DNA from: a virus
DNA: 64,000 nt
IMG/VR virus record: IMGVR_UViG_3300028581_000013
Strand: one strand, 5' to 3'
A program made the position numbers and the translations under genes. This document shows positions 3,372 through 31,994 of the stretch, piece after piece (position 1 is the first letter of the stretch; the number at the start of each line of letters is the position of its first letter). The notes under the pieces were generated by a model. That model worked only from the letters and a program-made list of their open reading frames with translations. It was not told the DNA's origin and searched no databases.

Positions 3372-3377
3372 TATAAT
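3349..3377 (+). promoter_or_regulatory. sigma70-type promoter upstream of RNase H
   Basis: TTGCCT-17-TATAAT with extended TG. Confidence 0.7.
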
Positions 3378-3404
3378 ATAATTTTGAAACTGTGAAAGTT
3401 TGTT

Positions 3405-5306: not shown

Positions 5307-5359
5307 TGTTGTTTTGAAACAACATATCTATTGACTTTCCTTTATTTCCGTAGTATAAT
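5307..5359 (+). promoter_or_regulatory. Palindrome operator plus sigma70 promoter (copy 1)
   Basis: TGTTGTTTTGAAACAACA 5307-5324; TTGACT-17-TATAAT. Confidence 0.85.
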
Positions 5360-5384
5360 GGTTCTTCTACACTGGAGAATTGTT

Positions 5385-5729
5385 ATGATGATTTATGGAT
5401 ATATTCCAAAAAGCAAAAAACGGAAAATTTCAAAAACAAAAAAACTTCAACACGAAGAATGGTTACTATCCATTAATTCGATGTCTACCAATTTCAGTAA
5501 AACAAAATCCAAGAATATTTCGACAGGTGTTCCTTTACCTAAGATTCCGGCAGGTCGTGAAACTCCCCACTTTGCGTCCTTAGATACTGGTTTTATCGCT
5601 TTGACAAAACCTGTTCCAAATTCATACACCGGCAACAAAATGAAAGGCATTGCTACAATGCACAAATCAAATGCTGTGCCGGTTTTCACGGATACTGAAG
5701 CAAAAGAAATTTCCAGCATGCGGAGATAG
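5385..5729 (+). CDS. Conserved phage hypothetical protein
   Basis: GIATMHKSNAVPVF motif; start moved to the ATG behind the GGAG RBS and promoter. Confidence 0.75.
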   Translation: MMIYGYIPKSKKRKISKTKKLQHEEWLLSINSMSTNFSKTKSKNISTGVPLPKIPAGRETPHFASLDTGFIALTKPVPNSYTGNKMKGIATMHKSNAVPVFTDTEAKEISSMRR

Positions 5730-6217
5730 TAAAAATGAATCCAAAAGGATGGAATGATGAAGATTGGGACGATTATGAGGAATACTTGCAAAATTTGTCT
5801 GCCAAAGAGCTTGAAATTGAGTTAAAATTGCTTCATTCGCTCGGTAAAGCGAAAAAAGAAGGCAAAAATATTGTTCCTAATGAAACTTTTTATAAAATGT
5901 GAGGTGAGTATGTTACAACAATGGGAAGAAACGCAAATATATAGAGGAATTGACGAAATTATGCATAATTTGCGTCATATACCAGCTGATGATGTTGCTT
6001 ATTTCTTGGTAAAGTTCAATCCGAATCTTGCCGAAGAGCTTGCAACTGCAATTGAGCAGCGAATTTTTGATAAAAACGAAGGAAAAAGGCATGAATGAGA
6101 GTCCTGAAAATATTTGGTTGTCGGCAATCGCAGATGACGATGAAATTCCTGCGTGGAAACGCTTGGATATCGTAACTCGCAAGTGGGCTGTTTTATCTGG
6201 AATGGAAAAAGACTTAA

Positions 6218-6424
6218 ATGACTACCAAAAACGCAAAGAATTTTACCAATAAAACATATTTGACCAAAATCGTTGATGTAAACGATGGTACGGGTGATGG
6301 TATTCTAATTCTTCCTGAAGAAATCGTAAAATACAATCATTGGAAAGAAGGTCAAGCAATTGAAATGGAATATAGAGAAGGAAAACTCTACCTAAAAGCC
6401 TTATCGGATCATAGCGTTGTATAA
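6218..6424 (+). CDS. AbrB/MazE-like swapped-hairpin protein
   Basis: GDGILILPEEIV...WKEGQAIE pattern. Confidence 0.6.
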   Translation: MTTKNAKNFTNKTYLTKIVDVNDGTGDGILILPEEIVKYNHWKEGQAIEMEYREGKLYLKALSDHSVV

Positions 6425-6477
6425 AAACAACAGCATGAAAGTTGCCGCTTGACGGTAGATGATTTTTATGAGATAAT
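6415..6477 (+). promoter_or_regulatory. Palindrome operator plus sigma70 promoter (copy 2)
   Basis: CGTTGTATAAAAACAACA 6415-6432; TTGACG-17-GATAAT. Confidence 0.75.
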
Positions 6478-6500
6478 ACTATTATTAACTCGGAGAATCT

Positions 6501-8624
6501 ATGGAACTAATTCAATCTAAATCGTTACTTGCCAAACTAATGGCAAATGAAAATCTGACAATCGAACAGCGCAATACAAACACGGCTGCATTTGATGTAA
6601 AAAACCGTGTGTTGACTGTACCTATTCTTGACAAGAATATCTCTGGTTATCTCTATGACCTTTTTCTAGGTCATGAAGTAGGCCACGCACTATACACTCC
6701 CCTAGACGGCATGATGAAAGCACACAAAGAAAAAATACCAATGGGTATTATGAATGTGCTAGAAGATTCTCGTATCGAAAGAAAAATCAAAAACAAATAT
6801 CCCGGTATTCGTTCCTCTTTTGTCCGTGGCTATCGTGAATTAATTGAAAAAGATTTCTTTGGTACAAATGGTACGGATCTCAATGATATGAATTTTATTG
6901 ACCGTGTTAACCTTTATACAAAAGGTGGTGCTACACAAGGCATTCGTTTTACTGATGTTGAGAAGTCGTTAATTCATCGCATTGAAAATACCGAAACATA
7001 TGATGATGTGATTACATTAGCTTATGATGTTATGGCTTATATGAAAGAAGAATCCGAAGAGCGTAAAGCAAATGCACCAGAAGAATTAGAAGAAGATCCT
7101 GATGGTGAATTTGAATCTGAAGGTTATGAAGATTCTGATGACTATGACTACGGAGATGAGGATGATACCATCGAAAAATATGGCCAGCCAAAGTCTGAAG
7201 CCGATGAATCAATGAATGAAATTGAAGATGAATACAAACAACAAAGAATTGGCCATGATGGCGGAGATACCACTGGTCAAGAATTCGATTCTTTGACTGA
7301 TAAATCATATCGTCAAAACGAAAGTAAATTATTTGAATTGAGCAATAAACATTATTACTATGGTAACATCAATGATATTGATTTGAAACGAGCTGTTATT
7401 CCATATAAACAGTTATGGACAGAATACAAAAATGATATGAGTAAATATGATATCGGTTATTCCGGTATCGACACAACTGCTTTTATGAAAATCCGTAATG
7501 ATGCCAAGAAAGTTGTTGGTTATTTGGCCAAAGAATTTGAATTGCGTAAAAATGCTGACCAGCAGAAACGTGCATCGATTTCCAAAACTGGTGAATTGAA
7601 CATGAACAAAGTTTATGCGTATAAATTTACCGAAGATATTTTTAAACGTATGACAGTTTTGCCTGAAGGTAAATCACATGGTCTCATTATGTTCCTTGAT
7701 TGGTCTGGTTCTATGTCTGACCACATGAAGAACACATTCAAACAATTAATCAATCTGGTAATGTTCTGTAAGAAAGTAAATATTCCCTATGAGGTATATG
7801 CTTTCACATCCGAACATAGTGATAAGTATAGTGTTGATTTTAAAGTGGGTGATTTAGACTTACATGGTTTTAAATTAATGAATTTGTTATCGAGCAAAAT
7901 GTCGGCTTCTGAGTTTACTTACGCCTGTTCCGCTTTAGTACATTGTTCTGAACCTCGTGCCGTTCGGCCGCACTGGATGCATCTTGGTGGCACACCACTA
8001 TATGAATCCGTGATTGCTGCTATGAAGATTATACCTGAATTTCAGAAAAACTATAAATTGCAAATCGTCAACACAGTATTTCTAACCGATGGCGAAGGCA
8101 ATCCAGTAAGAAGTGTATATTTTACAAACGACAAAGGTTTGCGTGCATCTGGTTACAATAATCCAGATTTAGATTTAGGTGGCGCATATGGTAAAGAGAA
8201 GGTCTTTGTGATTCGTGATCCAATTACTAAAAACGAAGAAAAGATTTATCAACCATATGGTCCAGAATTAATGAGTGCCTACATTAAATTATTAAAAGCA
8301 AGAACACAATGTAACGTGATTGGTTTCTATGTATTATCTGGCCGTGAGTTTGGTCGTGTGGCTCACACATTCTACCCTAGAGTTAGTGACCATATGAAAC
8401 TAAAAGCTGAGTTTCGTAAAGAGAAATATAAAATTGTTACCAATGCTGGTTTTGATGAATATTATTTGCTTCGTTCAGAAGGACTAGATACTGATGATGA
8501 TACTGAATTTCATGTCAGAGAAAATGCCACCACTCGTGGTCTAGTATCGGCATTTAGTAAGTATGCTGGTAATCGATTGTCAAATCGTGTTGTATTAAAT
8601 CGATTCATCGGACTGATTGCATGA
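6501..8624 (+). CDS. Metallopeptidase-like/vWA protein (CobT-like partner of MoxR AAA+)
   Basis: HEVGHALYT (HExxH), NVLEDSRIE, acidic linker, MIDAS DWSGSM, GGTPL, FLTDGE. Confidence 0.88.
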   Translation: MELIQSKSLLAKLMANENLTIEQRNTNTAAFDVKNRVLTVPILDKNISGYLYDLFLGHEVGHALYTPLDGMMKAHKEKIPMGIMNVLEDSRIERKIKNKYPGIRSSFVRGYRELIEKDFFGTNGTDLNDMNFIDRVNLYTKGGATQGIRFTDVEKSLIHRIENTETYDDVITLAYDVMAYMKEESEERKANAPEELEEDPDGEFESEGYEDSDDYDYGDEDDTIEKYGQPKSEADESMNEIEDEYKQQRIGHDGGDTTGQEFDSLTDKSYRQNESKLFELSNKHYYYGNINDIDLKRAVIPYKQLWTEYKNDMSKYDIGYSGIDTTAFMKIRNDAKKVVGYLAKEFELRKNADQQKRASISKTGELNMNKVYAYKFTEDIFKRMTVLPEGKSHGLIMFLDWSGSMSDHMKNTFKQLINLVMFCKKVNIPYEVYAFTSEHSDKYSVDFKVGDLDLHGFKLMNLLSSKMSASEFTYACSALVHCSEPRAVRPHWMHLGGTPLYESVIAAMKIIPEFQKNYKLQIVNTVFLTDGEGNPVRSVYFTNDKGLRASGYNNPDLDLGGAYGKEKVFVIRDPITKNEEKIYQPYGPELMSAYIKLLKARTQCNVIGFYVLSGREFGRVAHTFYPRVSDHMKLKAEFRKEKYKIVTNAGFDEYYLLRSEGLDTDDDTEFHVRENATTRGLVSAFSKYAGNRLSNRVVLNRFIGLIA

Positions 8625-8817
8625 TTCAAATAAAAGAGATTGCATCGTTTTCCGGTGAAGAAGGTAATCTAAAAGCTACCGTCTATCACGATCAGAAATA
8701 TGAAAAGCCTTATGTCGTAAAGTATAATATCTGTGATGAATATAATGCAGAATTATATTATGACAATGAGAATGATGCAATCGAATCAGCAAAGCAATTT
8801 ACATTATAAGGATAAAA

Positions 8818-9030
8818 ATGGAATTATCTAAATTTATGAATGGCGATAAGAAAGCCATTGTAGAAAGGTCTGAGTATAATTACACTATTGTTTATTATCT
8901 AAACGAAAAGATAATTAAAAAAGAAGTAACAGCTGATTATCAGAAAGCAGAAGATATGGCAGAAGATTATGTTTTGGCTGAAGAAAAAAAAGGACCAAGC
9001 TTTTTAGTGGAGAAATGGAACGATGTCTAA
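8818..9030 (+). CDS. Hypothetical protein
   Basis: RBS AAGGA, in operon. Confidence 0.6.
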   Translation: MELSKFMNGDKKAIVERSEYNYTIVYYLNEKIIKKEVTADYQKAEDMAEDYVLAEEKKGPSFLVEKWNDV

Positions 9031-9286
9031 TATGATTGCTGAAGATGATTTTAATCCTAAGAAAATTGCCGATGAGATGATCAAACGATGCCTCAATGCA
9101 AAAGAGTGGCACATAAAGTGTTATGTGCAAGAAGAATGGTTTATTAATGGTGTTGTACCATTTACAATCAATATGAAAGATGGTTTATATACTTGTAAAG
9201 TAATTGCTCCGACCAGAGAGTCAGCACTTAAAAAAGTAGAAGAATATATGCCTGTGATTAAATTTGTAGAAGATGATGGAAAATAA
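9023..9286 (+). CDS. Hypothetical protein
   Basis: Overlapping operon packing. Confidence 0.6.
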   Translation: MSNMIAEDDFNPKKIADEMIKRCLNAKEWHIKCYVQEEWFINGVVPFTINMKDGLYTCKVIAPTRESALKKVEEYMPVIKFVEDDGK

Positions 9287-9560
9287 AACAAAAGAAACAT
9301 TAATTATATTACAAGAAGAATGTGCAGAAGTAATCCAAGCAACCTCTAAGATATTTCGATTCGGTTTTGAATCGTGTTATCCCACAGAAGATTCGGCAAC
9401 AACCAAAGAATGCCTGACTATGGAGTTAGGTCAACTATTGTGTATGATTGGTTTATTGGTTGAACAAAAGGTAATCAATGAACATGATATGTTGACTGCC
9501 ATGGAAGCCAAGAAAATAAAACTAGAAAAATGGTCGAGTATATTTAAAGATGCATCCTGA
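9273..9560 (+). CDS. MazG-like nucleotide pyrophosphohydrolase
   Basis: ILQEECAEVIQATSKIFRFG...ELGQL. Confidence 0.75.
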   Translation: MMENKTKETLIILQEECAEVIQATSKIFRFGFESCYPTEDSATTKECLTMELGQLLCMIGLLVEQKVINEHDMLTAMEAKKIKLEKWSSIFKDAS

Positions 9561-9873
9561 CGAACTACTGAAATTTCTAAAACACCTTTTGGTTTGGACA
9601 CCACAAGGTAGCTATACACGAAATCAAATACAAAATATGATTAATCAGCTGAAGGCACAGAGGCAATAAACATATATAGAGGTATGCTAGAATACCTCAA
9701 ACTTTGCCTCTTTATTGTTGCCATAACAATGGCATATGCTTTTGTACAGCATGATGATTACCATAAAAAGTTTGACAAACCTATTGCTATCGAGTATAAT
9801 TGTAGTATGTTAAATTATGAAACACCAAAAGACGTAGTTGATTTATGTAACGATACCAAGAGGAGATTTGTAA

Positions 9874-10134
9874 TTGTTAAGACCTATTAAAAATAATGTA
9901 ATTATTGAGTTGATTGAAAAAGAAAAGATTACCGGTTCTGGCATTCTTCTTTCATCTGCCGATCCAGTAGAAGCCAATAAAGGTAAAGTAGTATCATTAG
10001 GACCTGATGTAGAAATGGTCAAAGAAGGTGATATGATATTACCTAATTGGAATGCCGCACGCAAAACCAAATACGATGGTATAGACTACTATATCGTTTC
10101 TGAGGACGAAATCGTTTTAATCTTTGGAGAATAA
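9874..10134 (+). CDS. groES: Co-chaperonin GroES
   Basis: LRPIKNNVII, TGSGILL, GKVVSLGP, VKEGD, EDEI. Confidence 0.9.
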   Translation: MLRPIKNNVIIELIEKEKITGSGILLSSADPVEANKGKVVSLGPDVEMVKEGDMILPNWNAARKTKYDGIDYYIVSEDEIVLIFGE

Positions 10135-11131
10135 TATGCCTTTTGATATTACAAATGAAGAATACTTGGCTGTGTTAGAAACCGAGAAAGAAACTCTACT
10201 ACGACACTACTACAAGCCACACCACGAAGGTACAGGACATTTCAATACGGCCGCTTCTGTATTACAACACCGTATTGATGAGATTAAAAAAGAAATGGGA
10301 CAATCGTTACAATAGGAGATAGGCATGACCACATTTACCAGCGAAGATAGAGATAATGCAAGTAAATACACAGACGAAGCACCGTATCATCCTGGTTACG
10401 AAGGCGTCATACCTGATCCACAATTAAAATTAGATTTACCCAATACCGAAGAACAGAACTCACTACTACGCAAACGAATACTTGAACTAGAAGAAGAACT
10501 GAAAGAATATCGTTCTTTCAAGACCCGCCATTCCAACACAGCACAAAAGATTATTGACTTTATAAAAACATGATTACATTTTTAGGCATTCTTGGATTTC
10601 TCATCACCATACTGGTGGCTATACCAGCCACACTTATTGCTCTCGCCACACTTATCGAGCATCCAATCCGTACTATTCTTACTCTTTGGATCACTCTACT
10701 CGAAACATATAAAGACCTCTGGAATAATCTAACGAAGTAAAAAACTGGCGAAACGTAACACCAAAACTTCTATATCATGGCAAAACATCTAGTAATAGTA
10801 CCTCTCTTAATCCTCTGCGTTTCCGCCGCCTCCGGACAAGAAGCGCCTCCGATACCAAAAGATTCCAATATAGTTTTAACCTGCCGTCCTCAGAAGCCGC
10901 TGAGCCATACTTGGATTTGTATCGACCAAAATGGTAAAGAACGAACCAATTTAATCATTAAAGACAAGGAAGCAAAATGAGGTTACTACATCTCTTTCAA
11001 TACTGGACACATACCGACCTCTGGTTCTCCAAACATTTCTGGTACTTTCGAGAAACCACACCCAAAGGTTATCTACTTCTTACCATCTGTGGTATCGCAA
11101 TGGTTTTTGACCGGCCAGAGAGAAGTATCTA

Positions 11132-11503
11132 ATGCGAAACAATTACAATAATCTACCAGTGGTTATTACATCGGTTACATCAAATGAACCGATATCGGAT
11201 GTTCCTTGTGGTACTTGTACCCGTTGCTGTGAGTTGTTGGCACCAATGCTCTCATCCGAAGAAATTACCTCTGGACTATACCCATTAAGTTTTACGAACC
11301 CCACAGAACAACAACGGAAAGAGAATCCAAACTCCAATATCGTCATTACTCTATACAGAAAAGCAGGTGGTGGTTGTGGTATGTTTGTCGATGGCCGTTG
11401 CTCAATCTACGATATTCGACCCAAGGCCTGCCGACAATTTGATTGCCGAAAAGGTCATTACTCCGAACTAAACGAATTCGCCAAAGAGAAATTTAACCTA
11501 TGA
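11132..11503 (+). CDS. YkgJ-family CxxCxxCC metal-binding protein
   Basis: CGTCTRCC...C.MF...CSIYDIRPKACRQFDC. Confidence 0.85.
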   Translation: MRNNYNNLPVVITSVTSNEPISDVPCGTCTRCCELLAPMLSSEEITSGLYPLSFTNPTEQQRKENPNSNIVITLYRKAGGGCGMFVDGRCSIYDIRPKACRQFDCRKGHYSELNEFAKEKFNL

Positions 11504-11751
11504 GTCGCCAATGGAAAGACGGAGAGACCGTTGCAAACTTTCTATACTATGACGATACCGGTAGAATCATTGGCGAAGTAGGCCTTGCTGGCCATCAGAT
11601 TAAAACTAAACACACGACAACCATCTATCCAGACAACAAAGAGGTTTTCTCTTTAGGCATGTATATTAATTCTGAATATGCCAAATCTGCTGTAGAAAGA
11701 TGGTGGTTAATACAAGATAGGACATTATTAAATTATGAAGATAACAACTGA
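11500..11751 (+). CDS. Hypothetical protein
   Basis: ATGA-coupled to the previous ORF. Confidence 0.6.
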   Translation: MSRQWKDGETVANFLYYDDTGRIIGEVGLAGHQIKTKHTTTIYPDNKEVFSLGMYINSEYAKSAVERWWLIQDRTLLNYEDNN

Positions 11752-11828
11752 TGTATCCGGTAAATGGGTACCAATACAAGATGTACTGAAACTTTTAGAG
11801 AAAATACAAGAACTGGAGAAGCAACTGT

Positions 11829-12098
11829 ATGGTTCTCGTTAAGGTAGTATTACTAATGGTTTCCGTGGTGCTTACCGGATGTTCTACGATTGTACAATAT
11901 CCAGTCACAAGTGCCTCAATGGTTGTATGGGGAACTACAGGTAAGACCACGACTGACCATGCTTTATCTTTTGTAACTGGTAAAGACTGTGTAACCTTAC
12001 GAATCTTCTCTCAATATGCCAATGAGTATATCTGTGAAGAAGTGGTAGAAGAAAAGGTATATGAACTCCGAGGACTAGACAAAGTAGCAAAACGATAA
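11829..12098 (+). CDS. Putative lipoprotein
   Basis: Hydrophobic N-terminus with lipobox LTGC. Confidence 0.65.
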   Translation: MVLVKVVLLMVSVVLTGCSTIVQYPVTSASMVVWGTTGKTTTDHALSFVTGKDCVTLRIFSQYANEYICEEVVEEKVYELRGLDKVAKR

Positions 12099-12099
12099 A

Positions 12100-12425
12100 A
12101 TCCTCTGGGGCCTCCTGGAAAAAAATCCAGGAATTCGAAAATCCTGGAAAAATAGCCGAGAAAAAAAGTTACTGAATATTGCATCCGACCTGGGGCAAAA
12201 CTTTTTTAGCAGCGCAAAACAGTCTGTATTGCCTCCGAGCCGTGTCCTCTCTGAATCCCCGAGCAGCCTCTCTGAGCACCTCGCCCGTCCGAGTCAATCC
12301 CCACACGGCATCCAGAGGGGCATTCGTACCACAATCCGCCAAAATCCTCTAAGCTCCTCAATAGTCGACCAATCCGGTCAAGAATTATCCTCAATGGCCT
12401 CAATGGCTTACGGCATGCAAAAATA
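12100..12425. repeat. GC-rich, repeat-dense non-coding region
   Basis: TCCTGGA/TCCAGGA inverted and direct repeats, A-tracts, CCTCTCTGA x2, CCTCAATGG x2. Confidence 0.75.
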
Positions 12426-12429
12426 CCAT

Positions 12430-12457
12430 TTGACAAGCCCGCCAATACCTGTATAAT
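12430..12457 (+). promoter_or_regulatory. Strong sigma70 promoter
   Basis: TTGACA-16-TATAAT. Confidence 0.85.
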
Positions 12458-12490
12458 AATCTCATTAACTCAGAAAAGAAAGGAATTACC

Positions 12491-12766
12491 ATGTTTTCAT
12501 ATATTGACACCATCCAGAATTTAACCGTTGCCGAAAAGCGCAATTTGGTAAAATCTATTAAATTTATGATTAAGGAGCATATTGCTGCTAACCGTCAAGC
12601 TAATTTTGAGCGTAAGCAGAATTCCGCTTTATTGCGTGCTCAGAAAAAAGCTGACCGCATCGCCGCTCTTGAAGCAAAGCTCGAAGCGCTTCGCAATCCA
12701 GTCGGTGCCAAAGCTATCAAGGCTAACAAAAAGCCTTCCAAAGTGGTAGTTACCAAAACGGCGTAA
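12491..12766 (+). CDS. Basic early protein (hypothetical)
   Basis: Strong RBS AAAGGA directly behind the promoter. Confidence 0.8.
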   Translation: MFSYIDTIQNLTVAEKRNLVKSIKFMIKEHIAANRQANFERKQNSALLRAQKKADRIAALEAKLEALRNPVGAKAIKANKKPSKVVVTKTA

Positions 12767-13468
12767 GCTGCTGTTTTTAGTGATTTTATAGTGGCGCTTC
12801 TCAGTAGGCGCCATTAGTAAGATTATTATAATACAATATAGGGATAAAATGAGAAAATTAACCACGGATCCATTTTTAAGCCGTATGGTAACACCTAACG
12901 CAGAACGAGCTATGAATTCTGCCACTAGCAAAGGTTTTACCAAATGGGTCAATAAAGATATACAAAAAGCTGCTCTTACAGGTGACTGGTCGGATATGAT
13001 AACCAAAGCTCAAAAATCGACCAAATATTTTAGGAATACCTTTTATGCTTGATAGTATTAAATTATTACCACTTAACGATAAAAAAACACTATTGGCCAT
13101 GCTTCAAGCGGACATAGGGTTAACCATAGAGGTTAATTTTACAGTCAAAAAGCCAGAGTATTGGCAGGTAGAGACCGCTCGCTGTAACCAGGTGGCTATA
13201 GTAAAGCGTAGTGGTGGACAGGTAATTTATACAGAGCTGCAGAGTAATGATTAATCCCTTAGGTGGCGGAGATATTGTAAGACCATTGGCAAATAACCTC
13301 GTAAGACCACCGCTTTTTTCTGAGTACCTTAGTAGCTTTTCTCTAGGATACTCAGGAAATGGTAGGAAATGTGCGGAGAATCACGGAAATAAACTAAGAG
13401 CCGCAATGAGCACCAGTGTGGCGACAGCACCAGCGACTATATTACGGAAAGTAATAAAGAGGTCTCTA

Positions 13469-13529
13469 TGTTGTTTTTATACAACGGATGTTCGATTTTT
13501 ATTGACATCCACCGCCATTCTGGTATAAT
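13469..13529 (+). promoter_or_regulatory. Palindrome operator plus sigma70 promoter (copy 3)
   Basis: TGTTGTTTTTATACAACG 13469-13486; TTGACA-16-TATAAT. Confidence 0.85.
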
Positions 13530-13559
13530 GGTTGTATTATTTGATTGGAAATTATTATT

Positions 13560-14333
13560 ATGAAATTATTATCTACTGGCAATCCTAAGATTTTGAAAGG
13601 TTTGGCACAAGGTTACAATACCTACATTTTGCACCTTGCACCTTCTGACCTTTCTGGTTATAATACTTGCCCGAAAGCGACAGCAGGTTGCAAATCTGCC
13701 TGTTTGAATACGGCAGGTCGTGGTGGTCTATTCAAGAAAGGTACTACCACCAATGTTATTCAAGAAGCACGGATGCGTAAAACGGCATTTTTCTTTGAAG
13801 AGCGGAAGTATTTCATGGAGTGGTTAGTTGCTGATATTGAATTGGCGATTAAACAATCTGCTAAGAAAGGTTTGGTACCTGTATTTCGCTTAAATGGTAC
13901 TAGCGATTTATCATGGGAAAAGTATGAGGTTGTGCGTGCAGGTGAAGTTTTCACTAACATATTTGCAGCATTCCCAGATGTGCAATTTTATGATTATACT
14001 AAGGTGATTGGTCGTAAAGTATCAGGTATCAAAAATTATCATCTTACATTCTCGATGGCAGATGGTAATTATATGGATTGTAAGCGTGCCGTGGCTGAAG
14101 GTTTGAATATTGCTGTGGTATTCGGTATCAAGAAAGGTACTGCGATGCCTAAGAAATTCTTCAACCATAATCTATCCGTATTTAATGGTGATGATAGCGA
14201 TTTACGCTTTTTAGATCCTAAAGGTTGTGTGGTTGGTCTATATGCCAAAGGCAAGGCAAAGAAAGATACTAGCGGTTTCGTAAAGTATCCTGTTGGTGAT
14301 TATAAGTTTACTATGAAATTGGAGGCCGTATGA
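13560..14333 (+). CDS. Gp88-like protein (radical-SAM-related cysteine motif)
   Basis: CPKATAGCKSACL, RLNGTSD, FYDYTK, GDDSDLRFLD. Confidence 0.8.
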   Translation: MKLLSTGNPKILKGLAQGYNTYILHLAPSDLSGYNTCPKATAGCKSACLNTAGRGGLFKKGTTTNVIQEARMRKTAFFFEERKYFMEWLVADIELAIKQSAKKGLVPVFRLNGTSDLSWEKYEVVRAGEVFTNIFAAFPDVQFYDYTKVIGRKVSGIKNYHLTFSMADGNYMDCKRAVAEGLNIAVVFGIKKGTAMPKKFFNHNLSVFNGDDSDLRFLDPKGCVVGLYAKGKAKKDTSGFVKYPVGDYKFTMKLEAV

Positions 14334-14924
14334 GCGGTATGAAAGCATTTCTGGATGAAGTCCAGGTATTATTGGAGTGTGGTTACAATGCCGACCAAAT
14401 CTCCCAAGCATTAGGTTGCTCGTTGGACATGGCAGAGCAGGCAGTAGAGTATTGGACTGATTTTGCTGAATAATATGGATTGGCAGGATCGGCAGATATT
14501 GATTCGGTTCAGTATCGGTGTATCGTTATTATTAGTAGGAGTTTGTTTATGACTTATAAATTGGATTTATATGTGTTTTTATTTGGTTTATTATTAATGG
14601 TGGTATTATTATGAATGTGTATATTGTAAAATCTGGCCAGTTGGTCGATTTTTCTGGTTGGGAATGGTTGAACCTACGAGCTTTTTCGAGTTATGACAAG
14701 GCAGTAGCATTCATGCAATTGGTTCAAAACCAGATACCAACCAAGAACCTCGGTGAAACCGAGGATGTGCAAATTGAACATTTAACATTGGAGTAAAATT
14801 ATGACAGAAAAGCAATTAATACGGTTGGCCATTGAAGAATTTCACCTCAAAGGTCGTACCAATGAGCAGATAGCAAGAGTATTGCACCTGCCATTGGATA
14901 CGGTGACTGAGGAAGTGAAAAATA

Positions 14925-15242
14925 TTGTTTTCTCACCTTATTATGGGAGATAATATGTTTGGTGGTAAAATATTAGTGAAAACTAGGAAAATGGTAGAAG
15001 GTAGTCACCGCATGGAGTCCTATCAGGACACATGGAAGGACTCGGTGGATATCGAGTATGATGGTGAATTGACACCAGCGGTGACCTCGGCAATCTGTGA
15101 AGCGTGGAAAAACGCTGGCAAACTTGGTACCAATCAAAGTGGTTATGGTGCCTTACGGTGGTCAAATGCTGATAATATTGTTGGTGTAGATATTGAAAAA
15201 CGGCAATTAATTCTTAGTTGTTCGGTAAGTATTTGTGATTAA
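14925..15242 (+). CDS. Hypothetical early protein
   Basis: ORF; true start probably the internal ATG after GGGAG. Confidence 0.6.
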   Translation: MFSHLIMGDNMFGGKILVKTRKMVEGSHRMESYQDTWKDSVDIEYDGELTPAVTSAICEAWKNAGKLGTNQSGYGALRWSNADNIVGVDIEKRQLILSCSVSICD

Positions 15243-15248
15243 GTTTTG

Positions 15249-15314
15249 AATAGTTGACCGGTTTGGTCGACTATTATACAGGGTATTGACATTTCTACCA
15301 GTTTCCTGTATAAT
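15249..15314 (+). promoter_or_regulatory. Second palindrome type plus sigma70 promoter
   Basis: AATAGTTGACCGGTTTGGTCGACTATT 15249-15275; TTGACA-17-TATAAT. Confidence 0.8.
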
Positions 15315-15586
15315 GGTCTTTTAATTGGAGGTAATAATGAAAAAAGAATCATTCAAAGATTTTCTTATCAATCGATTTGAAAATTTAGAATATTATTATG
15401 TGTGTGATGGTTTACTTTTTGATTCATATCAAACGGCGGTACAATTTGCCAATGAGCAATTGCGTAAATTTGATATTGCTTTGAATATTGAGCGAGTAAT
15501 CAAGGTATGATGGTCGCAATCAGTATCGGTATTTTGTTGTATATGGTCGTATCAGCGTTATTAATTTATTTTGTTATTGAGGAGTT

Positions 15587-16126
15587 TTGAGTATGCCAAA
15601 TTGGTGTAATAATAATATTGAGTTGTCCCATCCTGATAAAGCGATGGTCGAGCGTGCCGCCAAAGCATTTGCTGATGGTACATTGTTGAATGAGTTTATT
15701 CCATTACCAAAAGAATTGGAAGACACCACGGCGCCTGCTCGTGAGTCCGATGAAGCATTGGTCGCCAAATACGGTGCTTCTGACTGGTATTCATGGTGCA
15801 TTAGTAATTGGGGTACCAAGTGGGATATCTCACCATATGGCGTAGAAATCAATGAGCATGGTGTATTGGTCGGTGCCTTTGATTCACCGTGGGGTCCTCC
15901 AATACAGGCCTATGAGCAGTTGGAGCAATTAGGTTTTGAAGTTCGTGCCTATTACAATGAACCAGGTATTGGTTTCTGTGGAATGTATGAAGGCTGTGAT
16001 GAATGCTACGATTATTCTGGCATGGATGCTGACGAAGCAGAAGATTATCTGCCAGAAGCACTTAATGAAATGTATGGTATCACGGAGAATATGTGTGAAT
16101 GGGAAGAGGAGAACGAAGAAGAATGA
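15587..16126 (+). CDS. DUF1281/YubB ferredoxin-like domain protein
   Basis: MPNWCNN, WYSWCISNWGTKWD, FDSPWGPP, YYNEPGIGFCG. Confidence 0.8.
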   Translation: MSMPNWCNNNIELSHPDKAMVERAAKAFADGTLLNEFIPLPKELEDTTAPARESDEALVAKYGASDWYSWCISNWGTKWDISPYGVEINEHGVLVGAFDSPWGPPIQAYEQLEQLGFEVRAYYNEPGIGFCGMYEGCDECYDYSGMDADEAEDYLPEALNEMYGITENMCEWEEENEEE

Positions 16127-16430
16127 GTATCTCAAATGTTGACCGTATGCGTGAAGCCTTGGTTCGTGATGAAATCAATTATTTTCAAACATTGAACCGT
16201 GGTGAATTGTTTGAAGCTCTTAAAGAGCTGCTTATTGAAAAATATGATAATATACCAGAACGGCACATTATCGAAGAATATGAAAGTTTGGCATAATTAT
16301 GAGTAAATGGGAATTTACAATCAAAGAATTAAAGGCACTTCAACAGAAAACGCCAGATACACCGGCAATCGTTGAAGCATATGTTGAATGGGTTTTATTA
16401 AAAGGTTATTCTATCAAGAAAACCAAATAG

Positions 16431-16481
16431 TGTTGTATATTTACAACAGGGGCTTGAAAACCCCTGTGGTAAGTGTATAAT
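16431..16481 (+). promoter_or_regulatory. Palindrome operator plus sigma70 promoter (copy 4)
   Basis: TGTTGTATATTTACAACA 16431-16448; TTGAAA-16-TATAAT. Confidence 0.85.
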
Positions 16482-16492
16482 GGTAGTATAAA

Positions 16493-16795
16493 TTGAATGA
16501 AAGGTACATTATGTTGAAATTTGAAGGTATTGCAAAAGTTGGTGATGTGATTCGTGCATACGATTTTGCACCATGTGCTGGTCGTGATGATGCATTTATT
16601 GAAGGTGTGGTAGAGCAGGCTAATTGTAATGAACCTGGTTTTAATTGCTATAAGGTTACGGTGACTGCTGACAAATTTGTTAAGTTTGAAACCAAACCTA
16701 ATAAAAAGAATCGTGTTGGTAAAATTATGTTTGTGCCACACCAGACCAGTTTTATGGAATTTGATTTTCGTGTGATTAATTTGAGCAAGGTGTAA
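16493..16795 (+). CDS. Hypothetical early protein
   Basis: Follows promoter; KVGDVIRAYDF. Confidence 0.7.
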   Translation: MNERYIMLKFEGIAKVGDVIRAYDFAPCAGRDDAFIEGVVEQANCNEPGFNCYKVTVTADKFVKFETKPNKKNRVGKIMFVPHQTSFMEFDFRVINLSKV

Positions 16796-16796
16796 T

Positions 16797-17105
16797 ATGA
16801 GTAAAATTAATAAGACCTTATACGAAGGCATTGATGCGTATGTTAAACATTTGGCAGATGATTATACCAATACAGCGGCTTACAATAGTAAAAAGTTTTA
16901 TATTGCTGTTGGTCGTAAGTATGTTCATATCATCATGGAAGATAACCAACGCAGTTCACATTCGTGGGTGATGTTGGTAGACGATAAGAAGTTTAAGCAA
17001 GGTGACATTCTCAAATCAGCATCATGGAATGCACCAGCAAGAAACTTTATTCGTGGTAATGTATTAAGTGGTAATTTTAATCATATTAGATGGTGTGGAG
17101 CGTAA
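16797..17105 (+). CDS. Conserved phage early protein
   Basis: GRKY..I...RSSH, GDILKSASWNAPARN.RGN. Confidence 0.75.
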   Translation: MSKINKTLYEGIDAYVKHLADDYTNTAAYNSKKFYIAVGRKYVHIIMEDNQRSSHSWVMLVDDKKFKQGDILKSASWNAPARNFIRGNVLSGNFNHIRWCGA

Positions 17106-17422
17106 TTATGAAATTAAATTATAGTGAAAAAGAAGCGGTGATGCAGGCAATATTTGGTAATCACAAATCACCTGCTGGCTTTCGGTCAACCTACAAAGGT
17201 GTGCCAATTGGTAACTATGAAATGGTAAAACAATTTATTGATTTTACCAAATATTTTGTAATGTTCCGTGGTCCTCGTAGGCGTGGTGCCAGTTCCACTC
17301 GTAAGTGTGATGCAAAAGCTTTTGATGTGTATCAGCGTGATGCTCGTGTAGTTCATGAGATTCGTATTGAGCTTGAGGCGTTTCAGCGTGGTGTAAAGTG
17401 GGCTAATAATCGTAGTCATTAG
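17090..17422 (+). CDS. Hypothetical protein
   Basis: FRGPR motif; in operon. Confidence 0.65.
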   Translation: MVWSVIMKLNYSEKEAVMQAIFGNHKSPAGFRSTYKGVPIGNYEMVKQFIDFTKYFVMFRGPRRRGASSTRKCDAKAFDVYQRDARVVHEIRIELEAFQRGVKWANNRSH

Positions 17423-17549
17423 TATTAAGTCTTAATGGAGGGATATCCTTGGCGGACTATAAACGGCCTAAACAGCAGCAGTCTTTTTTGTTGGCTATAG
17501 ACTATAAAGAAAAACCAACACTTATTCTTATTTGATTGGAGTTTATATT

Positions 17550-18005
17550 ATGGGTACCAGAAGTTTAACATTTGTTTACAATGAATCCAAGAGCGGAGAA
17601 GCCGCTGAGCGTATCATCAATATGTACCGTCAATACGATGGTTATCCAACAGGCCATGGTGCCGAGTTGGCAGAGTTTTTAAGTGCTGGTCGTATGGTGA
17701 ATGGCTTGGCTCAAACCAAAACTGTCAAAGAAATTGTTTTTAATGGCATGGGTTGTTTGGCTGCACAGATGGTAGCAAACTTCAAAGATGGTGCTGGTCA
17801 ATTCTATTTGCATCCTGTTGTTCAGCAATCGTGTGGTCAGGATTACGAATATCATATTTTGAATGTTGATGGTCAATTCAAAATTGAAGTGTATTATTGT
17901 GGTTGCAATATGTTTGGTATGAGCAGTGATTATGAGAGTGAAGTTATTTTCTCTGGTTCATTACCTGAGTTTGTGGAATTCTGTAAAGAAAAGGAGACAG
18001 CATGA
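17550..18005 (+). CDS. Conserved phage early protein
   Basis: MGTRSLT, YRQYDGYP.GHG, NGMGCLAAQ. Confidence 0.75.
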   Translation: MGTRSLTFVYNESKSGEAAERIINMYRQYDGYPTGHGAELAEFLSAGRMVNGLAQTKTVKEIVFNGMGCLAAQMVANFKDGAGQFYLHPVVQQSCGQDYEYHILNVDGQFKIEVYYCGCNMFGMSSDYESEVIFSGSLPEFVEFCKEKETA

Positions 18006-18235
18006 AAAAGAAATCAATTAAAGATTTATTTCCCGGTATTATGGTTCTAGATAACGAACCAGTTGAGGTTAGAAATCCATTTAGTGGTGAGAGCACAGTT
18101 CTAACGCCTGATGAGGTTGCGGTTTATGATTATCTCAAAGGTTGTGAATTGATAGGTGACCATAAAGGTTTGCGTAAAGCCCTTGATTGGTTTCGTACCA
18201 ACAATGGTAACGCTTACATGATTTTATTGGATTAA
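18002..18235 (+). CDS. Hypothetical protein
   Basis: ATGA-coupled; NPFSGE...YMILLD. Confidence 0.65.
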   Translation: MKKKSIKDLFPGIMVLDNEPVEVRNPFSGESTVLTPDEVAVYDYLKGCELIGDHKGLRKALDWFRTNNGNAYMILLD

Positions 18236-18767
18236 ATATGAGTTACGATTCTGATGTTGAAAACATTTACATGGTTGAGTTTGAGTCCGGCCGCACCATA
18301 CATACGAGCTTTTATGAAGTTCAAGATGTGAAGGAATTTTGTGCGGATGAGTATCCAAATGAAACCATCAAAGTAATTTACCAAGAAGTTTATGTTGGTG
18401 GAGATGAAGATGAATAAAAACGATTATCAAATCGATTGGAATAAATTGGCCAAGTATAATATTGTGGTCAATACACGACCAAAAGATCCGTTGCAAGATG
18501 TGATGAAGAATGATGAGTTGGTTTCGTGGATGCAGGAATATCCTGATGCTATGGATGCCATTAATAAAATAAAGGCAAAGAAATGAATTATTATCTTGTA
18601 GAATTTATGGATGATTCGGTTCATACTCAGTATGAAGGAGTTTCCGCTATTTCAGCCCAAGAGGCGGTGTATAGTATTAAACTCGGTTGGCCTGATGCCA
18701 AGATTTTAAATGTTTGGCAAGAAACTGGTGAAAACGACCAGTGGCGTGATGAAGATTTGGATGGTAG

Positions 18768-19169
18768 GTGTTAATGAGTATTAGTGCATACAAAGAAATT
18801 ACAGAATGGAATGAACCAGATTTTGTGGTGCCTAATCATATCTATTTGTTTGATGGTAAATCCAATATTTTAGCCTATGCTCGTGAGAGTGATGGTCAGG
18901 TAACAGTATTCAAAAAACCATTACCAATGGACACTCGTAGGCGTAAGTTTATCAAGGTCAAACACAAAGAATTGGACGCCATAGGCGCAACGGTGGTGGT
19001 TCAACAACCAGAAGCTTTGAATGTGCCACATTGGCAGGTCGTAAGTGATTCAGGCAAGACCTATACAGTCACTCTAGAATCTGGTAAATATCAATGTAAT
19101 TGTATAGGGTATGCCTATCGTGGTAAATGTAAACATAGTGAGCAGATAAAAAATGAAAATAGTAATTAA
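18768..19169 (+). CDS. SWIM zinc-finger protein
   Basis: C-terminal SDSGKTYTV...CNCIGYAYRGKCKH. Confidence 0.75.
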   Translation: MLMSISAYKEITEWNEPDFVVPNHIYLFDGKSNILAYARESDGQVTVFKKPLPMDTRRRKFIKVKHKELDAIGATVVVQQPEALNVPHWQVVSDSGKTYTVTLESGKYQCNCIGYAYRGKCKHSEQIKNENSN

Positions 19170-19488
19170 TTCTGATTATGGTGGTTTTTCTTTGTCTGAT
19201 TGGGCAATCGAAACATATGCTGACCGCAAAGGTATCAAATTGAAAAAAGAAAAAACCACATTTGGTATAACATTATATACGAATATTGATACCAATGAAG
19301 ATTTTGAAAGCAGGGACATTGAACGAAATGATCCTGTGTTGATTAAAGTTGTTGAAGATTTAGGTAGTAAATCATTTGGTTTTGCTGCCAATTTAAAAAT
19401 TGTGGAAATACCCGATGATGTGGATTGGGAAGTGGTACAATACGATGGTTTGGAACATATTGCAGAAAAACATAGAACATGGTATTAA
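19153..19488 (+). CDS. Conserved phage hypothetical protein
   Basis: KIVIN..YGGFSLS, R.DPVL..VVE, EIPDD, YDG.E.IAEKHRTW. Confidence 0.75.
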   Translation: MKIVINSDYGGFSLSDWAIETYADRKGIKLKKEKTTFGITLYTNIDTNEDFESRDIERNDPVLIKVVEDLGSKSFGFAANLKIVEIPDDVDWEVVQYDGLEHIAEKHRTWY

Positions 19489-19491
19489 AAG

Positions 19492-19542
19492 TGTTGTATG
19501 GACACAACAATAGGTTGACTTCTGGTGTGGTACCTGTATAAT
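19492..19542 (+). promoter_or_regulatory. Palindrome operator plus sigma70 promoter (copy 5) driving tRNAs
   Basis: TGTTGTATGGACACAACA 19492-19509; TTGACT-16-TATAAT. Confidence 0.85.
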
Positions 19543-19555
19543 GGTAGTTTGAATT

Positions 19556-19641
19556 GGGTAAGCGGTAAAGTTGGAGAGTTACAGCGGACTGTAAATCCGT
19601 TGCCTAAGGCTGAGTTGGTTCGAATCCATCCTTACCCACCA
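19556..19641 (+). tRNA. tRNA-Tyr(GTA)
   Basis: Acceptor GGGTAAG/CTTACCC, A73, CCA; anticodon arm GCGGA-CTGTAAA-TCCGT; long variable arm; TTCGAAT. Confidence 0.93.
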
Positions 19642-19642
19642 T

Positions 19643-19717
19643 GCACGGTTCGTCTATCGGTTAGGACATTGCCCTTTCACGGCAGTAAGAGGAGTTCGAT
19701 TCTCCTACCGTGTACCA
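19643..19717 (+). tRNA. tRNA-Glu(TTC)
   Basis: Acceptor GCACGGT/ACCGTGT, CCA; anticodon arm TTGCC-CTTTCAC-GGCAG; T arm AGGAG-TTCGATT-CTCCT. Confidence 0.93.
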
Positions 19718-19737
19718 AAAGTATTAAATAGTAAATT

Positions 19738-19869
19738 ATGAAAAAGAAAACTAGAGCACATTTCGTATTATTTTGTAGTAATACACCATTCAAACCAAAA
19801 AGAGTGGTGTCAAAGGTCGCCTTCAAGAGGCGTGTTAAACATAAATTGAAAGATTTACATTATGAATAA
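19738..19869 (+). CDS. 43-aa basic microprotein, possibly ArfA-like
   Basis: MKKKTRAHFVLFCSNTPFKPKRVVSKVAFKRRVKHKLKDLHYE fills the gap between the tRNAs and the AAA gene; not in ORF track. Confidence 0.6.
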   Translation: MKKKTRAHFVLFCSNTPFKPKRVVSKVAFKRRVKHKLKDLHYE

Positions 19870-21022
19870 AAATGCAAAGCATTTCGTTGTAGCGTGTGAA
19901 GAACGATTTGGTTCTGAAGTAATTATCACAAGAGATGGCATTACACAAGTTTGCAACGAATCAGGTGCACCATATCCATATTGGTTGGTGACCAAGGCAC
20001 AATATCGTTATGACCGTGGTCAATACAAAGTTCCACCAAGTGGTGAAAAACCTAAGGTGAAAATAAAAGAACAAGAACCTGAATTAGAAGTTGCTTATGC
20101 ACAACCTGCACAAGTGTTAGAGTTCCGCCAACCAAAATTGTTGGATGAATCTGAACCATCGGTGCCACAAAAATGGCCTGATTATGTGCCGTTTGGTTTT
20201 TTCAAAGATATGAGAAACATTATCAGTAGTAAATCATTCTATCCAATCTTTGTGACTGGTTTATCTGGCAACGGCAAGACCTTAATGGTTGAGCAAGTGT
20301 GTGCTGAATTAGGTCGTGAGTGTATTCGTGTAAATATCTCCGTTGAAACTGATGAAACTGATTTGCTTGGTGGTCCCACATTGGTCAATGGTAATGTGGT
20401 CAATCGTGATGGTCCTGTTCTTATCGCTATGAAGCGTGGCGCAGTATTGTTGATTGACGAGGTCGACCGTGGTTCTAATAAGTTGATGTGTTTGCAAGGT
20501 ATTATGGAAGGCAAACCACATTACAATAAGAAATCAGGTGAGATGGTTTATCCAAAATCTGGATTTACAATCGTTGCTACTGCCAATACCAAAGGTCGTG
20601 GTAGTGATGAAGGCAAATATCTATCACAGATTCTTGATGATGCTTTCTTAGAGAGATTCCCAATTACGGTAGAACAGGAATATCCTGATACCAAAACTGA
20701 GAAAAAGATTTTAACACCGTTGATTGAAGATAAAGAATTCGTAGAGCATTTATGCCAATGGGCTGATGTGGTTCGTAAATCGTATGATGAAGGTGCAACT
20801 GATGAAATTATCAGCACTCGCCGTTTGGTACATATTGCCAAAGCATTTTTGATTTTCAAGGATCGTATGAAAGCCATCACCTTGTGTGTGAATCGTTTTG
20901 ATGAAGAAACGAAAATGGCATTCTTAGATTTGTATAGTAAGGTGGATAGTTCGGTAGAATCACCTGCCAATACAAGTACCATTTCTACCACATCTGAGGT
21001 TGCCAACCAATCTCAGATGTAG
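19862..21022 (+). CDS. cobS: MoxR/CobS-family AAA+ ATPase
   Basis: Walker A GLSGNGKT, Walker B LLIDEVD, TANTKGRG, DAFLERF, ISTRRL. Confidence 0.9.
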   Translation: MNKNAKHFVVACEERFGSEVIITRDGITQVCNESGAPYPYWLVTKAQYRYDRGQYKVPPSGEKPKVKIKEQEPELEVAYAQPAQVLEFRQPKLLDESEPSVPQKWPDYVPFGFFKDMRNIISSKSFYPIFVTGLSGNGKTLMVEQVCAELGRECIRVNISVETDETDLLGGPTLVNGNVVNRDGPVLIAMKRGAVLLIDEVDRGSNKLMCLQGIMEGKPHYNKKSGEMVYPKSGFTIVATANTKGRGSDEGKYLSQILDDAFLERFPITVEQEYPDTKTEKKILTPLIEDKEFVEHLCQWADVVRKSYDEGATDEIISTRRLVHIAKAFLIFKDRMKAITLCVNRFDEETKMAFLDLYSKVDSSVESPANTSTISTTSEVANQSQM

Positions 21023-21028
21023 TATAAT
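21000..21028 (+). promoter_or_regulatory. sigma70 promoter inside an inverted repeat
   Basis: TTGCCA-17-TATAAT; ACATCTGAG/CTCAGATGT flank the -35. Confidence 0.7.
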
Positions 21029-21082
21029 GGTGGTGTAGCAAGTGAGAAGTTTTTATATTATTAATTTATTAGGAGTATTACA

Positions 21083-21409
21083 ATGGCATTAACAGTTCGT
21101 AAAGGTAAGGTAAACCGTCATGAGAAAATTACCCAAGTAATGTTGTCTGGCAAACCTGTGAGTCCTGCTGAGATTGAATCAGTATTCAAAGGCACCGACC
21201 AAGAGAAAGTCCTGTATCGATTGAGTACCAACATCTATAACATTCGTAAAGATGGCGGTATCGTTAAAGTAATCAAAGAAGGCCGTAAAGTAAAGGCATA
21301 TCAGTTGGTTAACTTTGACCAGTTCGATTCTAATGGTCGATTTAAAGGTGTTGTTGCTAAGGCACAACCAAAAGTAGCTGCAACTCAGCAACAGGCTGTA
21401 GCAGTTTAA
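21083..21409 (+). CDS. Putative winged-helix DNA-binding protein
   Basis: Basic; HEKITQVMLSGKPVSPAEI...RLSTNIYNIRKDG..I..K.GR..AYQL pattern. Confidence 0.55.
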   Translation: MALTVRKGKVNRHEKITQVMLSGKPVSPAEIESVFKGTDQEKVLYRLSTNIYNIRKDGGIVKVIKEGRKVKAYQLVNFDQFDSNGRFKGVVAKAQPKVAATQQQAVAV

Positions 21410-21492
21410 TCTTACGCCATCATATAGTTTTTTAGACTCGTTGTGAAACGCTCGGACTATATGGTGGCACCACTTTTATATTATGAAAAATT

Positions 21493-21654
21493 ATGACACT
21501 TGATAAAGAAGAAATGTTTGAGTATTTGAATACACTGCGTGAAACTGGTGTGACCAATATGTTTGGTGCCTCACCATATTTACAACAGGCATTTGGTATC
21601 GACCGTAAAGAAGCAAAAATCATATTATTGGAATGGATGAAAAGTTATGAGTGA
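21493..21654 (+). CDS. Small conserved phage protein
   Basis: FEYLNTLRETGVTNMFGASPYL motif; not in ORF track. Confidence 0.7.
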   Translation: MTLDKEEMFEYLNTLRETGVTNMFGASPYLQQAFGIDRKEAKIILLEWMKSYE

Positions 21655-21973
21655 CCATCATATGGCTGGTGACCAAAAAGCACCTAGTGACCGATTTGAT
21701 TTTGAACAACAAATTATCAAATGTTGGGGAATAGTTGATGACCTTAAAGAGCTCGATGAAGGTTTATTTGAGGGCTGGGTAGAACATGATAATGAATACA
21801 CAGTTTCAAATCATGTGCAGAGCCTTGCTCATGTTTATGATGTTAAATTTCAGAAATTGTGGAGTTTGTTTGAAGATGTAATGATGGCAGAAGTTCGTAA
21901 GAATAAAATGCTTGAAGAAGAATGTGCCGCATTACGTGAACAATTAATGAAAAAAGAAAAAGGTAAAAAGTGA
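21647..21973 (+). CDS. Hypothetical protein
   Basis: DRFDFEQQIIKCW; in operon. Confidence 0.65.
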   Translation: MSDHHMAGDQKAPSDRFDFEQQIIKCWGIVDDLKELDEGLFEGWVEHDNEYTVSNHVQSLAHVYDVKFQKLWSLFEDVMMAEVRKNKMLEEECAALREQLMKKEKGKK

Positions 21974-22188
21974 AATATATTGCAAAACCAAATTTAATGA
22001 ATAATGTAGGTCTCAAAGAGTTCAATAATCCAATTGATGCTTTGACCTACCTAAACGAGATCCTAGGCGCCAAGGCAGGCGACCATCAGGACTATGTGTT
22101 CATACCACCATCGACCTCCAAGCGGAACCTAAAGAAGTCCATTGAAGAATATGTTGGTATTGGTAAGTTGGAATTGAGACCTGAATAG

Positions 22189-22239
22189 TGTTGTACCGAT
22201 ACAACAAACGCTTGTATTATTCCGTGGTTGTGTTATAAT
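22189..22239 (+). promoter_or_regulatory. Palindrome operator plus sigma70 promoter (copy 6)
   Basis: TGTTGTACCGATACAACA 22189-22206; TTGTAT-16-TATAAT. Confidence 0.8.
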
Positions 22240-22573
22240 GGTATCTAAAGTGAGAAAGGAATCTATATGATTAATTTTATTATTGGTTGTGTTTTAGGCT
22301 TTGTTGTTGCTACTGTAGGTTTTACTGGTATTGCTCAAGCATTAGATACTGGTATTGATAAAGTAAAATCAATTAATGTTGATATGGATAAATGATGGAC
22401 AAAAAGTATGTTTACTACAAACCATTAAATGTGAATAATTTAAAACAAGTTGCTATTGCAATGCATTTAAATTACCTACATACAATTCAATTGAACATGA
22501 TTGATGAAGCGGTAGAGAAGTCTGATATGCAAGAAGCAAAAGATGTTATTAGTTATATTATGGAGAAATCTAA

Positions 22574-31930: not shown

Positions 31931-31994
31931 AAATAAATCACCAGCATCACACAAACCGCTGGTAATACACATAAACACACACAAGGAGAAGTAA

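Follow-up and report, generated by a model that had tools for sequence, protein, structure and literature searches.

Early promoters preceded by an inverted repeat are a described feature of T4-type phages, in which promoter-early stem-loop (PeSL) cassettes, each a stem-loop with an early promoter, occupy variable regions of the genome (Arbiol et al. 2010, PMC2839356; Comeau et al. 2014, PMC4122927). In these cassettes the stem is rich in G/C or resembles a terminator (Gn-loop-Cn; A3-4G3-loop-C3T3-4) and has been shown to terminate transcription, and the cassettes have a role in shuffling (PMC2839356; PMC4122927). The subject of the present analysis is an 18-bp dyad, with the clade consensus TGTTGY-N6-RCAACA, found in a 64,000-nucleotide stretch (hereafter the window) of IMG/VR virus record IMGVR_UViG_3300028581_000013, an uncultured freshwater T4-like myovirus whose host is likewise uncultured. 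The resemblance to PeSLs is considerable: in a variable early region of small open reading frames (ORFs), the inverted repeat lies in intergenic sequence just upstream of a predicted sigma70-like early promoter, followed by a Shine-Dalgarno (SD) sequence and an ATG, and it has a group-specific stem consensus, variable loops, and a possible link to cassette gain, loss, and shuffling. The dyad differs in that its stem is weak, lacks a U-tract, and does not covary, and in that it lies at quantised one-turn distances from the -35 box, an arrangement undescribed for PeSLs. On balance, the dyad is probably a double-stranded DNA operator for a dimeric, sequence-specific protein, situated in the UP-element zone of some sigma70-type early promoters.

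Transcription activators provide further points of comparison. At class I promoters of CRP, the C-terminal domain of the RNA polymerase alpha subunit (alpha-CTD) binds between activator and sigma, and both class I CRP and p4 of phage phi29 can activate or repress, the same protein doing either depending on its position. Compared with these systems as they are generally known, the dyad likewise lies upstream of the -35 box on one helix face, with an A-rich tract between the two in its long spacing class. It differs from CRP sites in a half-site unrelated to TGTGA-N6-TCACA and in a short-class centre near -49.5, which is not among the CRP positions; neither a CRP-family nor a p4-like protein was identified. 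In T4, the MotA box is not a palindrome; it takes the place of the -35 box, at -30, and depends on AsiA. Both it and the dyad are phage-specific elements added to sigma70 promoters of T4-like phages, but dyad promoters keep an intact -35 hexamer, and neither MotCF (the Pfam entry for the MotA C-terminal domain) nor AsiA gave a match over the cut-off in five relatives, complete ones included, in agreement with a first-pass annotation of the window that had set the element apart from the MotA box. To our knowledge, the order of early and middle transcription in T4-like cyanophages, pelagiphages, and freshwater relatives without MotA/AsiA is not understood.

The late activators Ogr and delta act through the RNA polymerase alpha subunit from sites centred near -55. 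The outer triplets of the dyad form TGT-N12-ACA, the pattern of sites for these P2 Ogr/P4 delta proteins (PMC3931495) and for PpsR/CrtJ repressors (PMC4452267), and Ogr sites are also found upstream of phage promoters. In the dyad, however, positions 4-5 and 14-15 are invariant as well, a search of five related records, of which three are complete, gave no hit to the Ogr_Delta zinc-finger domain (PF04606) at E <= 1, and the copies are unpaired, unlike PpsR sites, which normally occur in pairs 8-9 bp apart. The invariant inner bases, the absence of an Ogr domain, and the unpaired layout thus argue against membership of either group. A literature search with the motif string returned no match, and by eye we know of no fit, in spacing or sequence, to the sites of CRP, FNR, NtcA, LexA, Fis, LysR-type regulators, PadR (ATGT-N8-ACAT), or NrdR.

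The dyad and its promoters

The first-pass annotation had reported six copies of TGTTGT-N6-ACAACA, four of them 5-6 bp and two 15-16 bp upstream of a -35 box. All six lie where they had been placed, four as exact copies and two with one mismatch, and the gaps, re-measured, are 6, 16, 15, 5, 5, and 5 bp:

5307-5324, unstranded: dyad copy 1, TGTTGTTTTGAAACAACA, exact; 6 bp to the -35 box
5331-5359, plus strand: promoter TTGACT-17-TATAAT(GGT), upstream of ORF 5385-5729
6415-6432, unstranded: dyad copy 2, CGTTGTATAAAAACAACA, one mismatch (CGTTGT...); 16 bp to the -35 box
6449-6477, plus strand: promoter TTGACG-17-(TG)GATAAT, upstream of the 707-aa phrog_459 'peptidase' gene 6501-8624
13469-13486, unstranded: dyad copy 3, TGTTGTTTTTATACAACG, one mismatch (...ACAACG); 15 bp to the -35 box
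13502-13529, plus strand: promoter TTGACA-16-TATAAT(GGT), upstream of the Gp88-like gene 13545-14333
16431-16448, unstranded: dyad copy 4, TGTTGTATATTTACAACA, exact; 5 bp to the -35 box
16454-16481, plus strand: promoter TTGAAA-16-TATAAT(GGT), upstream of a small-ORF cluster from 16493
19492-19509, unstranded: dyad copy 5, TGTTGTATGGACACAACA, exact; 5 bp to the -35 box
19515-19542, plus strand: promoter TTGACT-16-TATAAT(GGT), upstream of tRNA-Tyr and tRNA-Glu (19556-19717) and a CobS-like AAA+ gene (19862-21022)
22189-22206, unstranded: dyad copy 6, TGTTGTACCGATACAACA, exact; 5 bp to the -35 box
22212-22239, plus strand: promoter TTGTAT-16-(TG)TTATAAT(GGT), upstream of a small membrane ORF (22267-22395) and the genes that follow

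The promoters after the six copies are all predicted to be of sigma70 type, with a TTGACA-like -35 box, a 16-17-bp spacer, and TATAAT, mostly followed by GGT. Exact matches to TGTTGT-N6-ACAACA number four in the window against 0.03 expected, and matches with at most one mismatch number eight, where 200 first-order Markov simulations gave a mean of 0.64 and never more than 3. Six of these eight stand at promoters; the other two, at 2033 (nrdB) and 23991 (metallophosphoesterase), are within coding sequence and have no promoter. The promoter-linked dyads sit between small ORFs. Each of the six is closely preceded by a stop codon, which for most copies is 0-12 nt away on the 5' side. At least eight consensus-like promoters in the window (9772, 12430, 15286, 21000, 26964, about 31205, 33984, and 34770) have no dyad, and the element therefore marks a subset of promoters. 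Of the target genes named in the first pass, the tRNA/AAA+ operon, with its CobS/MoxR-type AAA+ gene, and gene 13545-14333, which is Gp88-like (PF17338, E 5e-39), are confirmed. The label of a von Willebrand factor A (vWA) gene for 6501-8624 is not: its sole match is the PHROG 'peptidase' family phrog_459, and no vWA domain was found in its product with Pfam or NCBIfam.

The element recurs across a comparison set of 80 IMG/VR contigs whose CobS proteins are 74-97% identical to that of the window, nearly all of which bear it. Promoter-like sites were searched first, which avoids bias towards the motif, and the best upstream match per promoter had either at most two or at least four mismatches; these two groups indicate that the dyad is a discrete element. 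Across 121 promoter-linked copies from the window and the 80 contigs, conservation at arm positions 1-5 and 14-18 is 90-100% and positions 6 and 13 are Y and R, around a variable, AT-rich centre with a symmetric T8/A11 preference, upholding the near-invariant arms and variable core noted in the window. The 6/13 pair is T:A in 71 copies, C·A in 36, T·G in 12, and a compensatory C:G in only 2, and no compensatory change occurs at any other pair. Fixed arms with no covariation mean that sequence, not pairing, is conserved. The arms show no strand polarity: T-to-C changes are common in the 5' arm, as are A-to-G changes in the 3' arm (about 15 versus 10 slots in a manual tally).

Complete or large relatives, 71-236 kb in length, carry 1-10 copies each, which cluster in early regions; a reversed-pattern control gives 0-1. 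Pelagibacter phage HTVC008M has none, and the L063/L065/L066 lineage essentially none, its promoters being preceded by other sequences and unrelated hairpins. In five relatives (L023 424, L019 827, L064 4023, L055 3170, and L045 2464) a dyad instead occupies the 5' untranslated region (5'UTR), about 35 nt past a TTGACA/TATACT promoter and followed 8-25 nt later by the SD for a ~110-aa protein beginning ...LSITELKQ(L/M)L..., which is by its layout a repressor-like position. The counterpart of this slot in the window holds an unrelated 91-aa ORF (12491-12766) and no dyad.

Traces of expression come from lake and river metatranscriptome assemblies, which contain short contigs from relatives, 90-99% identical to the region. 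Two RNA-library contigs start just past a predicted -10 box, one at 16481 in the cassette of dyad copy 4 and the other at 21034, after the dyad-free promoter at 21000, a weak hint of promoter use. None among the matches listed spans a dyad.

Distance to the -35 box and the operator reading

Gaps between dyad and -35 box fall into narrow classes. Of the 218 copies with a promoter, 115 have a gap of 5-8 bp and 76 one of 14-17 bp; a 48-bp gap accounts for 16 more, all from two orthologous slots, and other values for only about 11, several of which are tandem dyads or coding false positives. When copies are sorted by downstream gene into about 28 groups, orthologous slots are seen to alternate between short and long gaps, with half-turn values almost absent; the tRNA/CobS slot, for example, has 40 short and 28 long gaps. 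The one-turn difference first noticed between copies in the window is thus repeated in about 28 promoter slots of relatives. Counting each slot/gap combination once gives 50, and 45 of these are no more than 2 bp away from a 10.5-bp register (p about 3e-10, a rough value, as the slots are not fully independent). With a transcription start assumed 7 nt downstream of the -10 box, short-class dyads are centred at about -49/-50 and long-class dyads at about -59/-60. In the long class, a conserved A-rich tract, AAATAATGC, separates dyad from -35 box. The same tract lies directly upstream of the -35 box in dyad-free promoters of the clade, and it resembles a proximal UP subsite.

Nearly invariant arms, a variable centre, the lack of covariation, a weak RNA hairpin, and a phased gap together make a terminator less likely than a site on double-stranded DNA that a dimer reads from one face of the helix. 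The copies have the general features of a dimer operator, namely sequence-conserved half-sites, symmetric tolerance of change, a variable spacer, and fixed promoter geometry, and the proposal that the palindrome is the site of a dimeric regulator is borne out to the extent that conserved arms, absent covariation, and phasing are what a sequence-specific dyad on double-stranded DNA would be expected to display. From these patterns we infer protein binding, contact with RNA polymerase, and co-regulation. A dimer would dock on the dyad, always on the same helix face as the -35 box, and the bound protein would tune the promoters jointly, through or against alpha-CTD or sigma region 4. In the long class, alpha-CTD could sit at AAATAATGC, between bound protein and sigma, as in CRP class I promoters. 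Dyads might in addition mark sites of cassette duplication or exchange. We lean slightly towards a positive or dual role in regulation, and file the element as a PeSL variant with the role of a protein operator rather than of a proven PeSL terminator. The operator reading would supply a concrete cis element and a candidate protein for a defined set of operons in phages without MotA/AsiA, and suggests that some stem-loops classed as PeSLs are perhaps protein-binding DNA sites, not terminators.

Several observations weigh against this assignment. The related contigs share phylogeny, so that counts overstate independence, and the gap classes can also be read as a dyad plus 5-6 bp plus an optional 10-bp A-tract module, not as selection on helical phase. 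Other early promoters in the window bear different inverted repeats in the same slot, and any stem-loop may suffice there. Being already close to consensus, most of the promoters with a dyad should work without an activator. Lastly, the L063/L065/L066 lineage keeps the gene for the leading candidate binder, a winged-helix protein described below, with an identical recognition helix, yet has essentially no dyads.

A separate arrangement was observed in L010 505, L016 972, L019 3289, L023 2066/3758, L064 7271, and L042 1806. In this 'far' class a weak -35 box (TTGTGG or TTGAGG) follows the dyad at 47-48 bp, with an extra conserved element, RCCAAGTAT, between dyad and promoter.

Alternative roles for the inverted repeat

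The alternative that survives best, though we judge it unlikely, is that the dyad is an ordinary PeSL-type stem-loop acting as RNA or single-stranded DNA, whether as attenuator, terminator, or 3'-end stabiliser for transcripts of the upstream cassette, with arms kept uniform by recombination or gene conversion. Its layout of stop codon (0-12 nt before most copies), stem-loop, AT-rich tract, sigma70 promoter, SD, and ATG amid small shuffled ORFs is the published one, and published stems also have a group-specific consensus. Unrelated hairpins fill the same slot both at other promoters of the window and in the dyad-poor lineage, and identical 18-mers around extra cassettes (L004, L023) together with tandem copies (L073, L028, L035) are further points in its favour. 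The RNA itself is less accommodating. Hairpins predicted for the six copies are weak (-4.4 to -6.6 kcal/mol, z-scores -1.5 to -3.0) and have no U-tract, and a stable terminating stem-loop of the PeSL type is not predicted for any of them; C·A mismatches are frequent at the loop-proximal pair, and compensatory change is confined to the two C:G copies noted above. Gene conversion, moreover, should equalise loops, yet these vary between copies and close relatives as the arms stay constant, and a role in RNA leaves the one-turn quantised distance to the -35 box over 28 slots unexplained.

A site of recombination or a cassette boundary, used in site-specific or short-homology exchange and without a role in transcription, is far less credible. 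The setting is a suggestive one, in that the gene order of the early region is mosaic among relatives and homology blocks end near dyads or promoters. L004 has an additional dyad-plus-promoter cassette, duplicated and tandem or overlapping dyads (the latter in L073, L028, and L035) occur around such cassettes, with identical 18-mers bracketing extra ones at L004 3119/3537 and L023 424/2066, and in the slot at 22189 loop and gap differ from those of a 97%-related phage with the flanks conserved. No recombinase, however, could be linked to the dyad, ends of BLAST blocks are expected in intergenic sequence anyway, and recombination has no need of a fixed distance to the -35 box.

Little credence can be given to an RNA hairpin read by a specific RNA-binding protein or nuclease, for processing of polycistronic early RNA or for translational control in the manner of T4 RegA/RegB: the 5'UTR dyads before an SD in L023, L019, L064, L055, and L045 would suit it, but such proteins usually read loops or bulges, and here the stems are fixed and the loops free, arm changes lack strand polarity, and the -35 phasing is left unaccounted for. 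The features of an intrinsic terminator are lacking: each stem has only two G:C pairs, and no T-rich stretch follows ACAACA. The terminator scan flagged none of the six dyads; its only overlap was a minus-strand hairpin at 6449-6429 with four bases in common with dyad copy 2.

Candidate binding proteins and genomic setting

Scans of 80 early ORFs with Pfam, PHROG, and NCBIfam revealed no clear helix-turn-helix (HTH) regulator. Two proteins encoded in the window are considered as candidate binders:

21083-21409, plus strand: candidate binder, a 108-aa clade-specific protein with a predicted winged-helix fold; own promoter at 21000-21028
6218-6424, plus strand: second, weaker candidate, a 68-aa AbrB/MazE-like protein whose stop codon overlaps dyad copy 2 (PF04014, E 0.0014, below the Pfam cut-off)

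The winged-helix protein is the best lead, albeit a weak one. Its AlphaFold2 (AF2) model has a predicted local distance difference test (pLDDT) score of 80, and its top structural neighbours are all winged-helix regulators (among them the BirA N-terminal domain, PadR, MarR, and ArsR/SmtB), with modest Z values of 6-8. The N-terminal 85 residues are about 80-95% identical within the clade, and the more than 1,200 homologues are all unnamed and without a Pfam domain. Its gene is present in all clade genomes tested and not in HTVC008M, and in L062, L078, L033, L034, and L080 its promoter bears a dyad. Comparison of gene presence with dyad density showed that dyad-free loci are without many early ORFs but do have the winged-helix gene. 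The AbrB/MazE-like gene is not found in G003, which has 5 dyads, and two tiny HTH-like ORFs (14330-14473 and 14801-14953) occur in few relatives. A host factor as binder would account for use at immediately-early promoters and for lineage-specific loss.

A bolder proposal, which we regard as doubtful, is that the dyads belong to an undescribed, middle-mode-like temporal switch for T4-like phages without MotA/AsiA, in which a dimer of the winged-helix protein (21083-21409) would act on host RNA polymerase from class I-like positions and so co-regulate the tRNA/CobS, peptidase, Gp88-like, and small-ORF operons. In a rarer variant, a host regulator of TGT-N12-ACA sites, such as PpsR/CrtJ, would gate the early programme of the phage by redox or light.

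The surroundings of the winged-helix gene have further inverted repeats. Its own promoter in the window, TTGCCA-17-TATAAT (21000), is enclosed by CATCTGAG-N13-CTCAGATG, a hairpin reaching across the -35 box (20985-21030) and sitting within the 3' end of the CobS-like gene. A two-mismatch dyad, TGTTGCTAAGGCACAACC, is found at 21352-21369 within the 3' end of the winged-helix gene, with similar copies in L006-L008; it may be a coding coincidence.

The window encodes the T4-like core proteins NrdA/B, gp32, gp59, and gp33, together with baseplate gp6/gp5/gp48-like proteins, the CobS-like AAA+ protein, and the phrog_459 'peptidase'. Megablast of the window against INPHARED found no close cultured relative, and by CobS the nearest cultured phage is Pelagibacter phage HTVC008M (51% identity). 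Besides the two tRNAs, the window carries a permuted (two-piece) tmRNA at 31592-31932, with the tag ANDNMYALAA, which passes the gathering threshold of tmRNA_permuted as well as that of the betaproteobacterial tmRNA family; the latter match hints at a betaproteobacterial host. A 196-aa protein (28280-28870) matches the 'DNA binding protein' family phrog_624 (E 2e-51) and, very weakly, a pyrimidine-dimer glycosylase family in Pfam.

Other conserved or repeated sequences accompany the early promoters. Directly upstream of dyad copy 3, at 13300-13468, is a conserved, non-coding-looking block beginning CTCTAGGATACTCAGGAAATGGTAGGAAAT, the equivalent of which, in the 3119-3536 region of L004, has its own dyad and promoter in front. 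The block, which had no Rfam match at the gathering score, is possibly the gene of a small RNA. Another quasi-palindrome, of 27 nt (core TTGACC-N5-GGTCGA), occurs at 12360-12386 and 15249-15275, in opposite orientation and with 89% complementarity, upstream of the consensus promoters at 12430 and 15286, both of which are without the TGTTGT dyad. Upstream of the dyad-free promoter at 9772, the hairpin TGCCATAACAATGGCA (9719-9734) has a T-rich tail, giving a more classical, PeSL-like layout of terminator and promoter.

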